Assembly (NCBI GenBank): GCA_950072105.1
Contig: CATMOE010000008.1
Location: 1-64,000 of the forward strand
Reading direction: 5' to 3'
Length of the DNA stretch: 64,000 nucleotides
Origin: an uncultured Dehalococcoidia bacterium
GTDB taxonomy: Bacteria; Chloroflexota; Dehalococcoidia; Lucifugimonadales; UBA3495
The position numbers were made by a program, and so were the translations under genes. Shown here piece after piece: positions 7,885 to 13,874 of this stretch (positions are counted from its first letter, which is position 1; every line of letters begins with the position of its first letter). Under the pieces are notes generated by a model. The model was not told the origin of the DNA and searched no databases. It saw nothing but the letters and a program-made list of their open reading frames with translations.

Positions 7885-8886
7885 ATGGCAGAGCAGATCC
7901 ATCCCGATATCGTTGCCCGGACCGTTGGAAGAGAATCGGTGCTCACTGTGGTTGGCGCGGCACCGGATGCCAGGGGGCCGTGGTCGTTCATTACCGGTAT
8001 CCCGAACCCCGGCTTCGATATGGTTGGGCCTCCTGCCCAATACCTGTCGGTGGCGGCTTGGGCCGCTTGAACCGCGGTCACGGTGGTAGGCGTGGCCTAC
8101 CGTGGCAACATCGCCCTGGAAGACATCAAGGTCGATTTTGAGGTGGAAGCGGTTGAGCTTCCCAATGCGATCGGGTTTGGTGTTAGGGAACTGGTCACCC
8201 TGAAAGGCCGGATATCGGAGTCTGAGCGGGTCCGGCTTGAGCGGGCTTCCCGGTATTGCCCGGTCGGACAGGCTCTAACCAAGGGTTCCATGGAGATCGA
8301 AGATGAGATTCGATGGAGCAATGGGGAGGTGGCCTGGGCCTCTCCATTGCAGGATTCCCTTCCCCCTTTGGACGGTGCTCTACCCACCATACCCACTGGA
8401 TCCGTCCATGGCCGATACCTTCTGGACACCAAGGAGTACGACGACGAAGGGAAGATGGAGCACGAAGGCGAGGCCAAGATTTCCATTCAATGCCAAAACC
8501 TAACTCGGACAAGCCGCTGGACCATACTTGGCGGACATAGCTCCGAAGGCTGGGTACCGCCACCGTTTCCCTTGGGCCATGCTGGGTGGGCAGCGTCGAC
8601 CGTTTCTACTTTGAGCCGTCTGTTGCCCCAAGGGAGGGAAGACGCAGATGGCCTGAGTGTGGAGTTGTATTTGGCGGCCGGTCGCGGCGGCAGGGGGCAG
8701 TCCCAGTCCAACGCCGCCGAGGGTGTGGTGGCTCGCCGCGGGGTAACGCGCCGGATAATGGTGCCCGGAACTCCCAGTACCACCCCCATCGAGGCGGTCC
8801 AAGCGGCGCTTCAACGCGACCCGATAACACTGGCCTACCTGAACGGGGGCGTCCTTTTACATGACGATGTGGTGGTAGAGTCGTAG
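7885..8886 (+). CDS. Tandem OsmC-like domain protein, probable selenoprotein (UGA at 8068-8070, codon 62), 333 aa
   Basis: ORFs 7885-8070 and 8083-8886 are in the same frame. The TGA sits at the first catalytic Cys position (AAWAA-U-TAVT), the partner motif YCPVGQAL is present, and a hairpin follows. Confidence 0.8.
8076..8106 (+). promoter_or_regulatory. Candidate bacterial SECIS for the OsmC-like gene
   Basis: GGTAGG-CGTGG-CCTACC stem-loop at 8085-8101 on a GTCAC/GTGGC lower stem, just 3' of the UGA. Confidence 0.55.
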
Positions 8887-10295: not shown

Positions 10296-10466
10296 ATTTT
10301 TCCACCCGCTTTCCGACTATAAGATTTCCTGAAACCGAGTCTACTATAGACCATGGTGGTATGACCACACCTGGATGTAAGAGGAACCCGGTAGACAAGC
10401 CGCCCACCCCGACGTAACATGCCCCATGTTGGTGGCGGGGCGATTGACCCCAGGCGAGGTGATTTC

Positions 10467-11462
10467 ATGGAACGTATTGGGCTTTCATTTTCGGGTGGTC
10501 TAAATCCGCCGGATATCGTGGACTGTATCCAGCTTGCTGATGAGTTGGGCTATGAATCGGCGTGGATGGCCGAGGGGCATGGGGGCGATCAGTTCTCGAT
10601 TCTCACCGCCTGCGCTCTCAGGACCAAGAATATCTTGCTGGGCACCAGCATCACCAGCGTTTTCGTCCGCAGCGCCCCTACCATCGCAATGGCTGCGGCA
10701 TCGGTGGACCACTTTTCCCAGGGGAGGTTCGTGCTGGGACTGGGGACCAGCCACAAGGTTCAGGTTGAGCCGGAGCACGGGTTGGTGTTCGAAAAGGCGG
10801 TGCCTCGGTTGCGGGAGTGCGTTGAGATCGTTCGGGAGTTGCTGCAGAAGGGCGAGGTGTCCTATCAGGGCAGCGTCTACGACATAGAAAACTTCGACTT
10901 TTGGTTTGAGCCCTTGCGAAGGGAGATACCTATCTATGTGGCTGCCGTTTTCCCTAAAATGCTGGAGGTCTGCGGGGAGATCGCCCAAGGCGCACTGATG
11001 ACCTGGTGCACCCTGGAGCATGCCGCGACTGCGGCGTATCACGTGGCGGAGGGGGCGAAACGGGCCGGACGCGACCCCAGCGAGGTAGACGTGGCTACGC
11101 TGATGCCTTGCGCGGTGGGTAGCTCGGGCGAAGGGGCCATTGAAGGACTGAAGACCAACATCGCCAGGTACGCCGCCAAGTTCCCCAGGTACCGCAAATT
11201 GATGGAGGACGCCGGCTTTACCGAGGAACTCCAAGCGGTGCGCCGTGCCTGGAATGACGGCAATGAAGCGGAAGCCATATCATTGGTCCCCGACGAACTC
11301 GTCGACTCCATCGCGCTGGTGGGTAGCGCCGAACAAGCCAGGAGCCGGCTGGATGAGTATCGCCGTGCGGGAATCACTCAGCCGATCATTTCGCCCCGGG
11401 TTTCCGGAGAAAACTCCAAAGAAGAAGCGATGCAGATCATCCGGGCGTGCGCGCCTAGATAG
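10467..11462 (+). CDS. LLM-class flavin/F420-dependent oxidoreductase
   Basis: GYESAWMAE and GRFVLGLGTS luciferase-like motifs. Confidence 0.88.
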   Translation: MERIGLSFSGGLNPPDIVDCIQLADELGYESAWMAEGHGGDQFSILTACALRTKNILLGTSITSVFVRSAPTIAMAAASVDHFSQGRFVLGLGTSHKVQVEPEHGLVFEKAVPRLRECVEIVRELLQKGEVSYQGSVYDIENFDFWFEPLRREIPIYVAAVFPKMLEVCGEIAQGALMTWCTLEHAATAAYHVAEGAKRAGRDPSEVDVATLMPCAVGSSGEGAIEGLKTNIARYAAKFPRYRKLMEDAGFTEELQAVRRAWNDGNEAEAISLVPDELVDSIALVGSAEQARSRLDEYRRAGITQPIISPRVSGENSKEEAMQIIRACAPR

Positions 11463-11614
11463 AGGTTTGGCGATGTGGCGGTCTCAGAAAGCGTCGATCA
11501 TAGCCAGAGCGTTATCATCGTCGCCTGAGGGATATTTTTCGATCGATAAGTAGATCTGCGGGCAGCTCCACTGGATGTCTGGAGGGCCGACAGCTTTGAA
11601 AAGGCCGGTGATGA

Positions 11615-11971
11615 ATGGCGGTCGTAATATTTGATTCCGATTGCGCGGTGTGACAGGCGTTTAGGCGCTGGGTAGCGCATCGCGACAATTGCTCACGGAT
11701 CCGGTTCGTTGGTAATGAATGCAATGAGTCGGCCGAACTACTTCCTGATCTGTCAAAATTCGACCGCACGCACACGATCCACTGGATAGACGACGAAAGT
11801 GGTCACCGGCAGGGAGCGCGCGCCATCTTCACGATCGTCGGCGCAACGGAGAGCCGTCTCGGCCAGATCGCAAGACTCTTTGCCCGTTGGCCCCTATACG
11901 TCCTGGCGGAACCTTGGTACCGGATCTTCGCCCATCACAGAGGAAGATTCGCTCGATTCGCCGGGAAGTGA
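11615..11971 (+). CDS. DCC-family (DUF393) thiol-disulfide oxidoreductase, probable selenoprotein (CxxU, UGA at 11651-11653), 118 aa
   Basis: Manual translation MAVVIFDSDCAV-U-QAFRRWVAHRD...GARAIFTI...YRIFAHHRGRF matches the DCC pattern DxxCxxC...YxxxAxNR. Not present in the ORF track. Confidence 0.8.
11665..11678 (+). promoter_or_regulatory. Candidate SECIS for the DCC gene
   Basis: GCGCT-GGGT-AGCGC hairpin starting 11 nt after the UGA. Confidence 0.55.
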
Positions 11972-12072
11972 AGGCACCGCCAGAAGAGAGTATATTGCGG
12001 GTCGAACACAACTCTGAAGAATCTGGGCTTGGGATCGAAGCATGTTGAACAATCTGAAACGTAGAAGGCGCT

Positions 12073-12822
12073 ATGGGATTTAGAGTCACGACACTGAATC
12101 TGGAACAGGACCATAAACGGTGGGACGAGCGGCGGGAGTTGATCGTTGAGGAATTGGGCGGCTTGAAGCCCGATGTGTTTGCCATCAACGAGATCTGCCT
12201 TCCGCGGCAAACCGGCCGCTACCTCCAACATGCCGCTAAGGAACACTGCGGTCTCGAATATAATCTGATCCAGCAGTCGAAAGTTAACGGCCTCTCTGTT
12301 GTCGATGGAGAAGGTCTCTTGACCAGGTTCCCGGTAAGGGAAACGGCCAATCTGGACTATCGAGCCCGCGACGCCGTGGCCCTGGTCGCCCGGGTTGAGA
12401 TAGAAGACCGCCTAGTAGACCTCTACGTGACTCATCTCTACCGGTCTGAGGGGGAAGACTCCCTACGCCTGTATCAGGTGGAACAACTTCTTGATTGGGT
12501 AAGCTCTAGGAACGATGTCGACGCCCGTGTGGTCTGTGGTGATTTTAACGCAACCCTGGACATGGCCTCGGCTGCCTTGATGGCGGCCCATTTCAGGCCC
12601 ACCCAGACCGAGCCCACGGCATTCACCCCATTACAGGAAAAGAACGGGACATCATCCCACCCGAAGTGGGAGCGGTTCGACCGGTGCATCGACTACATCT
12701 GGGTTGCCGGTCCCCTTCGGGTGAAGGACAGCGGCGTGTGCTTCAACAAACCCAGCCCCGAGGACTATTCTCTATGGCCGTCCGACCACATGGGCGTTTG
12801 GGCGGATCTAGAGTTCGAGTAG
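12073..12822 (+). CDS. Endonuclease/exonuclease/phosphatase (EEP) family protein
   Basis: TLN, GDFN, IDYIW and SDH motifs. Confidence 0.88.
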   Translation: MGFRVTTLNLEQDHKRWDERRELIVEELGGLKPDVFAINEICLPRQTGRYLQHAAKEHCGLEYNLIQQSKVNGLSVVDGEGLLTRFPVRETANLDYRARDAVALVARVEIEDRLVDLYVTHLYRSEGEDSLRLYQVEQLLDWVSSRNDVDARVVCGDFNATLDMASAALMAAHFRPTQTEPTAFTPLQEKNGTSSHPKWERFDRCIDYIWVAGPLRVKDSGVCFNKPSPEDYSLWPSDHMGVWADLEFE

Positions 12823-12873: not shown

Positions 12874-13874
12874 ATGCCTAAGAGAGCAGCGCTGTTTTAT
12901 GACTATCCGATCAAGGACGGCGAGGTCTTTGGTCAAGGGCGAAGGCAGACCATCGAGAAGTTGACCGACCTCTATCCAGAGGTCATCAACGCGAAAAACT
13001 TTGACGAGCAAGTCTCCAGCCTGGCCGACGTGGAGGTTATCTTCGCTACTTGGGGAATGCCCCGTTTGACGGCCGAACAGCTTGGGAAGATGCCAAAACT
13101 TGAAGCGGTCTTCTACGCCGCCGGCAACGTGAGGGCCTTCGCTCAGCCGATAGTCGATCACGGCATCATGCTTGTCGGTGCTTGGGACATGAATGCGATT
13201 CCCGTGGCGGAGATGGCCCTGGCGCAGATTCTTCTTTCTTGCCGCGGGTATTACTGCGCGATACGTGATTATCACGAAACTCATGACCACGGCAAGGCCA
13301 AGACGTTCCATCGGCCGGGCGTCAACGGCGAAACGATAGGGCTTATCGGGATGGGCATGATCGGGGCGCGGTTGAGCGCCTTGCTCCAAGGCTTTAGCTT
13401 TCGGGTCATCGCGAACGACCCGTACCTTAGCGAGGAGCAAGCGGCGGAGCTTGGTGTGGAGATCGTTTCACTGGAAGAACTCTTTCGGCGGTCCTATATC
13501 GTAAGCAACCACATACCGGACCTACCGTCCACCAAAGAGGTCCTCACCGGGTCTTTGTTCGACAGCATGAGAGAGGGCGCCACCTTCATTAACACCGGCA
13601 GGGGCCTCAAGTGTCGGAAGCCGGCTTGATAGAAACCCTCAAGAATCGCCCGGACCTCACTGCCCTCCTCGACGTGACCTATCCGGAACCCCCAGACGCT
13701 GACTCCGAACTGTGGAAGCTGCCCAACGTTTGGATAAGCCCCCACATCGGTGGGTCCGTTGGGGACGAGGTGGTTAGGATGGCCGATTGTATGATCGAGG
13801 AATTTCAGGCTTGGGAGTCAGGCGAGCCGTTAAGATACAGGATAACGAAAGAAGTGCTTTCGACGATGGGGTAA
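12874..13874 (+). pseudogene. D-2-hydroxyacid dehydrogenase, frameshifted near 13605
   Basis: GxGxxG and INTGRG are in one frame; LDVTYPEP and SPHIGG are in another. One missing base would restore the frame. Confidence 0.85.

Follow-up and report, generated by a model that had tools for sequence, protein, structure and literature searches.

A predicted selenocysteine-containing form of the DCC1-like oxidoreductase family in Chloroflexota

Results and discussion

A DCC1-like gene with an in-frame TGA

The DNA analysed here (the window) is a stretch of 64,000 nucleotides from an uncultured Dehalococcoidia bacterium (assembly GCA_950072105.1, contig CATMOE010000008.1). The gap between the genes for a luciferase-like monooxygenase (10419-11462) and an endonuclease/exonuclease/phosphatase (12073-12822) holds a predicted gene of the DCC1-like family (Table 1). 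An earlier note on this DNA had described its frame, and our inspection confirmed it throughout: an ATG at 11615, an in-frame TGA as codon 13, 105 further sense codons and an end at 11971, in a gene that is indeed absent from the list of open reading frames at 80 aa. Two in-frame TGA codons directly precede ATG 11615, which is therefore the only possible start. No clear ribosome-binding site was recognized by eye upstream of 11615, and no sigma-70-like promoter was found directly upstream of the gene.

Table 1. Features of the DCC1-like gene in the window and of the paired paralogs of genome G324
Feature	Coordinates	Strand	Remarks
DCC1-like (DUF393/YuxK) thiol-disulfide oxidoreductase gene, predicted	11615..11971	+	118 aa on read-through; motif D7xxC10xxU13
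Predicted selenocysteine codon TGA, second Cys of DxxCxxC	11651..11653	+	aligned to Cys (CxxC homologs) and to TGA (13 distinct orthologs)
Predicted bacterial SECIS upper stem-loop	11665..11678	+	5-bp stem, GGGU loop; conserved in orthologs
Terminal TGA, taken as true stop	11969..11971	+	same end residue in homologs P0003, P0006-P0008
G324 DCC paralogs	L058:7815-8168 and L058:4095-4448	-	one CxxC, one UxxC

The assignment to DCC/DUF393, for which the note had proposed an HMM check, was borne out by a Pfam search, in which the read-through protein matched PF04134 (DCC1-like) across the UGA with 56.6 bits (E 7.7e-15; curated cut-off 27.8 bits), from residue 4 to 113 and over model positions 1-111 of 113. 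The DxxCxxC motif of the family is present, as D7xxC10xx(TGA)13, only if the UGA is decoded. In our alignment (A3) the second motif column is invariant as C/U, as are Y102, A106 and R109, and the late YxxxAxNR-like motif that had been pointed out, YRIFAHHR, sits at residues 102-109.

The TGA at 11651-11653 is no assembly error. At this codon no alternative letter occurs in one RNA-library contig or in two DNA runs, each of which had been flagged as potentially the source of this DNA (the fourth run was without coverage of it), and four metagenome contigs with 80-98% identity agree. RNA-library contigs span part of the gene, a type of contig that cannot show transcription. Upstream of the gene, both DNA runs show one extra T behind position 11534, which is probably a one-base error or a variant in the window.

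Conservation of the UGA in orthologs

The TGA was found at the same codon in 13 distinct CxxU rows of the alignment, down to about 30% identity, including metagenome contigs L062-L065 (syntenic or near-identical) and eight distant genes at about 30-39%. Among these orthologs is that of Ca. Lucifugimonas marina JH545 (L073), described in the available text of PMC10444878 as a cultured SAR202 strain, whose genome contains selA and selB; L059 and L073 encode an identical protein and were counted once. The CxxU rows group with four Cys rows in a clade of 17 rows (support 99/98). Two of the four Cys rows stem from genomes retaining the Sec machinery and one from a genome that is 95% complete (G118) and yielded neither selA nor selB nor selD; the Cys row P0009, known from protein and not from DNA, is nearly identical to L064. 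Thus the codon, which according to the earlier note might have been peculiar to this assembly, is kept in distant orthologs and alternates with Cys codons. In addition, all four close database homologs (75-90% identical) start after the UGA, as would be usual when a gene caller stops at a Sec codon.

Within the subclade of the window gene, dN/dS was about 0.2-0.4, and between L070 and L071/L072 about 0.1, indicating purifying selection both before and after the UGA. The four closest Lucifugimonas-like copies gave about 0.5-1.3, values based on only 4-8 changes, with nonsynonymous exceeding synonymous ones.

The named close homologs belong to Dehalococcoidia/Chloroflexota, and the sequencing runs containing the stretch are mostly marine. 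In a search with the single protein, 60 relatives yielded only two distant Cys homologs and 35 further genomes of the host's family did not yield the gene; likewise, a pattern scan of genome contigs with the single protein gave no match, and its alignment-based repeat succeeded. In the congener G002 (L105), 8 bases join the flanking genes where the window has about 580 (11472-12050). The DCC gene is therefore dispensable, being unfound in the 35 family genomes and cleanly missing from G002.

Selenocysteine machinery of the host genome

Lack of the Sec machinery, which the earlier note had named as decisive against its proposal, does not apply to this host: tRNA-Sec (selC, 66.4 bits), selA (550), selB (352) and selD (385) were all detected, and selD carries an in-frame TGA of its own. 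A genome-wide screen gave 48 Sec candidates backed by paralogs, an uncurated list that likely contains false entries and was used for hairpin geometry only. A G-loop hairpin of -5 kcal/mol or lower follows the TGA in 37 of these candidates, compared with 6.7% of 549 ordinary TGA stops. From the candidates and this enrichment, the host is taken to be a selenoprotein-rich organism, in agreement with the report from BSepDB, in the part of PMC13326102 consulted, that two Dehalococcoidia are among the ten genomes richest in selenoproteins.

Roughly a dozen U-G-S/G-C paralogs are also part of the large selenoproteome of the host, as are several UxxC genes of Trx-, DsbA- or Prx-like type. Unassigned paralog pairs with a shared TGA include C44:23779 (-) and C74:10536 (+), with SILF-U-EMTQ; C3:29687 (+) and C124:2655 (-), with WKRR-U-PLYG; and C3:19397 (-) and C19:15301 (-), with ASGD-U. 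Some of these pairs may represent further unlisted selenoprotein families.

Insertion of Trp or Cys at the UGA, through a variant code or leaky read-through, would also restore the frame of the DCC gene. Nothing points to it directly; the nearest observation is a Trp at the position of the window gene's terminal TGA in L064, P0002 and P0009, whose proteins run on. This reading is highly improbable, given that 549 long frames of the host genome end at TGA, that the UGA is confined to conserved Cys columns, and that a tRNA-Sec is encoded.

The SECIS hairpin and its conservation

According to the accessible text of PMC13188914, the bSECIS model comprises a loop of 3-9 nt with a G in its first two bases, a stem of 4-16 bp, a spacing of 16-37 nt from the UGA and an energy of -7.5 kcal/mol or lower. 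The hairpin GCGCT-GGGT-AGCGC starts 11 nt after the UGA of the window gene and fits this geometry (4-nt loop beginning with GG, 5 bp), its GGGU loop lying 16 nt after the UGA, at the lower bound. Folded alone as a 31-mer it has an energy of -7.4 kcal/mol, just short of the limit of -7.5, and over 50 nt the value is -10.9 kcal/mol. Position and sequence were as the earlier note had given them, but the hairpin had been slightly over-weighted there, as on its own it is no better than chance: 156 of 200 shuffles of the 50 nt were as good (z 0.79), and 15-39% of synonymous recodings matched it.

Its evidential weight comes instead from the homologs. In eight orthologs the hairpin was matched by only 1-8% of synonymous recodings; that of JH545 (L073) reaches -14.9 kcal/mol (z -3.3), and L071 and L065 have z of about -1.2. 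The 5-bp stem and loop are unaltered in L062 and L063, and a synonymous compensatory change of a stem pair, from C-G to U-A, was found in L071/L072. Two subclades have stem registers offset by one base, with the loop G-U fixed at +22/+23. When pairs were counted over nine downstream regions under one structure, none of 500 shuffles was as good, a result that is suggestive only, as the single structure mixes the two stem registers.

A larger comparison applied a common rule, which asks for an energy of -6 kcal/mol or better and for a G loop located at +19 to +23, counted from the second motif codon. Of the Sec-type genes, 23 of 25 had such a hairpin, compared with 1 of 39 among the Cys-type genes. 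Because the first Cys controls (L080, L081, L083) were AT-rich, the count was repeated at a GC content of 50% or more, with 21 of 23 Sec-type and 1 of 18 Cys-type genes. The loop window had been picked after the first genes, so that new loci from family f99 served as a check, which gave 34 of 44 Sec-type and none of nine Cys-type genes, related genes not being independent. A hairpin fitting the rule was missing from two UxxC genes (L058, L087) and from ten of the 44 f99 genes.

Codons for Trp-Val (TGG GTN), located six to seven residues beyond the motif, write the SECIS loop. The distance of this loop in UxxU genes is about 30 nt to the first UGA and 21 nt to the second, each within the allowed range, so a single hairpin likely serves both codons. 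All 12 CxxU genes of f99 and eight genes on the Lucifugimonas side encode W-V-Q-R, in which the Gln-Arg codons form the 3' arm, and this Gln was found in none of the nine f99 Cys genes. The RNA hairpin thus appears to constrain the protein sequence of CxxU genes.

The modest hairpin of the window gene raises the question of whether this copy, in a true selenoprotein family, is decaying or poorly decoded, with a weak SECIS and a mostly truncated product. Its stem of 5 bp compares with 7 bp in the sister copies L064/L065, its score in a dicodon model of its own genome is only 0.15 (barely coding; selD, 26.8), the gene is absent from the same site in G002, and the Cys form P0009 is close by. Against decay, the frame is intact and free of indels, dN/dS to L063-L065 is below 0.5, stem and loop are identical in L062 and L063, and loop, stem and spacing lie within the model, with -10.9 kcal/mol over 50 nt. 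We consider decay of the window copy unlikely, and a functional Sec codon the preferred reading.

Sec and Cys forms across Chloroflexota

DNA-level sampling of DCC genes covered Chloroflexota. A DCC match was found in 124 of 301 genomes of an order sample, three of the matches containing a TGA, in every case at a motif cysteine, and in 125 of 401 genomes of a phylum sample. There, 15 other stop-containing matches comprised 11 with a motif TGA (6 UxxU, 3 UxxC and 2 CxxU), one with a terminal stop and three mid-gene breaks. Of 121 genomes in family f99, 87 gave a match, a tally in which three unpublished genomes are counted that contributed no fetched locus. The fetched loci were further stop-containing ones (n = 56, excluding one TAA row and the stop-free rows) and consisted of 44 Sec-type genes (19 UxxU, 13 UxxC and 12 CxxU), nine CxxC genes with a terminal stop and three unparsed loci. 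The CxxU form proposed in the earlier note therefore holds, and its account of the range was too narrow, UxxC and UxxU forms existing as well.

These samples bear on whether the gene could be a pseudogene whose TGA arose by nonsense mutation or by an error in sequencing. Broken DCC genes do exist, as the three mid-gene breaks by TGA or TAA among the 15 matches illustrate, and a single change converts TGC or TGT to TGA. Nevertheless, the same TGA recurs in the 13 orthologs to about 30% identity; in the 55 further Sec-type genes from the phylum sample and f99 the motif cysteine codons are replaced by TGA only, never by TAA or TAG; and purifying selection acts downstream of the UGA, which is coupled to the Sec machinery and the hairpin. 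For the family, the conserved TGA and the TGA-only pattern refute a pseudogene or error, and for the window gene this origin has a negligible probability.

Among 20 carrier genomes tested, a set that excludes the 44 f99 carriers, selB was above the cut-off in 19. In the exception, G675 (UxxU), neither selA nor selB was found, yet tRNA-Sec and a UGA-containing selD are present; its congeners carry selA next to selB, so that a single gap in the assembly would account for the absence of both.

A protein search with a wider alignment returned 1634 matches. The motif is absent in 99 of the best 120, and nearly all of these begin just behind it, so that such motif-less database records likely arise through truncation at the UGA. 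Named matches of the wider profile include Ca. Dormibacteraceae and one Gemmatimonadales record.

On a tree of 48 rows, which left out 17 mostly distant outgroup rows, the Sec/Cys label needs 10 changes, six of them forced by well-supported branches. Chloroflexota DCC proteins would accordingly have undergone several switches, from Cys to Sec or from Sec to Cys, at one motif position or at both. One genome (G324) contains two DCC paralogs that are separated by 3.7 kb and share their upstream sequence (Table 1). Its UxxC copy is without the usual hairpin and may either have gained Sec recently or be a pseudogene.

Gene neighbourhood

The window neighbours of the DCC gene include msrA and an OsmC-like gene (7885-8886, +) with its own in-frame TGA (8068-8070). 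The latter TGA lies in a UxxT context with a 9-bp G-loop hairpin, and read-through lifts the PF02566 score from 18.5 to 36 bits. OsmC-like UxxT proteins are already a listed selenoprotein family; in the window gene an additional C-terminal half, about 190 aa long, has no Pfam match. On the same strand, a 2-hydroxyacid dehydrogenase gene (12874-13874) is split into frames of 251 and 87 aa where L063/L064 have a single ORF of 333 aa, from which comparison the split is read as a frameshift or assembly error near 13610.

Elsewhere, DCC genes have neighbours linked to light damage: at L059 (1560-2471 and 7511-8440) genes for a pyrimidine-dimer glycosylase, an SRPBCC-like protein and a B12-binding/HTH regulator, and at L081 (75-3043) genes for a photolyase, an SRPBCC-like protein and an SDR. 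A DUF393 gene co-transcribed with heliorhodopsin is mentioned in the consulted part of a preprint (10.1101/2021.02.01.429150). No partner, reductase or other neighbour was conserved across clades in the neighbourhoods read. An oxidative-stress role would fit these neighbours only loosely, and a photo-oxidative role may be taken as a lead.

Predicted fold and function

In the AlphaFold model of the read-through protein (pLDDT 80.6), the motif follows strand 1 and precedes helix 1, lying where the helix starts. The nearest solved structures are Trx/Grx/GST-N domains, with weak similarity in Foldseek (best E 0.13, none at 0.001) and a middling one in a VIA structure comparison (best Z 6.3, rmsd 2.6 over 70 residues).

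The conserved UGA, its alternation with Cys and the presence of the Sec machinery support the claim of the earlier note that the UGA specifies Sec as the second residue of CxxC. We are confident that the codon at 11651-11653 encodes Sec, giving a predicted Cys10-x-x-Sec13 dithiol/disulfide oxidoreductase. SelB-tRNA(Sec) would bind the GGGU-loop hairpin 16 nt downstream and insert Sec at the UGA. In thioredoxin chemistry the first motif residue attacks and the second resolves; by this rule Cys10 would attack and Sec13 would resolve or activate, with the enzyme cycling through a Cys10-Sec13 selenenylsulfide. The enzyme might reduce protein disulfides, by analogy to Arabidopsis DCC1 and its partner, and act in oxidative-stress defence or thiol repair. 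For Arabidopsis DCC1, reduction of a complex I subunit and a limiting effect on ROS have been reported (review PMC7598583, as far as its text was available), and by this analogy the most likely function is that of a protein-disulfide reductase in oxidative-stress defence. As TGG GTN codons supply the SECIS loop, switches between Cys and Sec would be cheap.

Alternatively, Sec could be inserted in a CxxU motif that serves for binding of a metal or metalloid or for redox sensing and does not catalyse disulfide exchange. The literature searched contained no activity of a bacterial DCC protein, and the neighbourhoods read contained no conserved partner or reductase gene, both of which would suit such a role. 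The fold of the model, nearest to Trx/Grx domains and with its motif where helix 1 starts, and the reduction of a protein partner reported for Arabidopsis DCC1 in the text seen of PMC7598583 argue for the oxidoreductase, and we regard metal binding or sensing as rather doubtful, if slightly less so than decay of the window copy.

Significance

With a somewhat better than even chance, these genes make up an undescribed and abundant Chloroflexota family in which CxxC, CxxU, UxxC and UxxU forms arose by independent switches around one Trp-Val hairpin, with the UxxU forms acting as diselenide oxidoreductases. If so, the hairpin even selects protein sequence, W-V-Q-R being convergent in two distant CxxU clades, and the four-state series is a ready-made test of selenium at the attacking versus the resolving position. 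Near relatives carry all four motifs on one scaffold, so the question of why, and at which position, some thiol oxidoreductases use Sec can be addressed by a comparison among natural proteins. Sec insertion can be tested directly, since the cultured strain JH545 carries the CxxU form. DCC would add a family to the bacterial selenoproteome, and many of its database records would be without the active site, as in the 99 of the best 120 profile matches likely truncated at the UGA. The surprise is limited, as reports of new bacterial selenoprotein families appear fairly regularly.

Comparison with known systems

The Sec form of DCC was not found in the literature and databases searched. The whole 119-entry table of prokaryotic selenoprotein families in PMC13188914 (2026), the part of that source that also covers the families of Haft and Tolstoy 2025, has no DCC, DUF393 or PF04134 entry, and NCBIfam release 20 contains no DCC model (best match E 0.11 for five proteins). 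No papers pairing selenoprotein with DCC, DUF393 or DCC1-like were found, subscription journals being outside the scope, and searches on SAR202 and selenocysteine returned only unrelated papers. The terms DCC and DUF393 are absent from the portions available of PMC12013277, PMC13326102, PMC13745706, PMC5029168, PMC2398784 and 10.1101/2022.07.06.499078. The family is thus probably uncatalogued; the BSepDB website, RefSeq Sec annotations or supplements could hold an entry.

Judged by its sequence, the window protein is a DCC member with the computable features of a selenoprotein, apart from the borderline hairpin energy. It resembles DCC/DUF393/YuxK proteins (PF04134, e.g., Arabidopsis DCC1) in its Pfam match, the position of DxxCxxC and Y102/A106/R109, and differs from them in having TGA as its second Cys codon, relatives being UxxC or UxxU. 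The hairpin shares with the bSECIS consensus (Figure 2 legend of PMC13188914, as seen in the text available) a G-first loop of 4 nt, a 5-bp stem and the 16-nt spacing, but its energy is borderline and the stem registers of the subclades are shifted by one base.

The Trx, Grx, DsbA-like, Prx-like, SelW-like and AhpD-like selenoproteins (Table 1 of PMC13188914, in the text available) offer the closest parallel, with Sec replacing a Cys of a CxxC-type motif, a SECIS behind the UGA and Cys homologs; they belong to Pfam families other than PF04134 of DCC. UxxU occurs in three entries of that table, none of which combines CxxU, UxxC and UxxU, and the consulted text of PMC2398784 describes a single Trx-like family with both CxxU and UxxC and a Prx-like family with UxxU.
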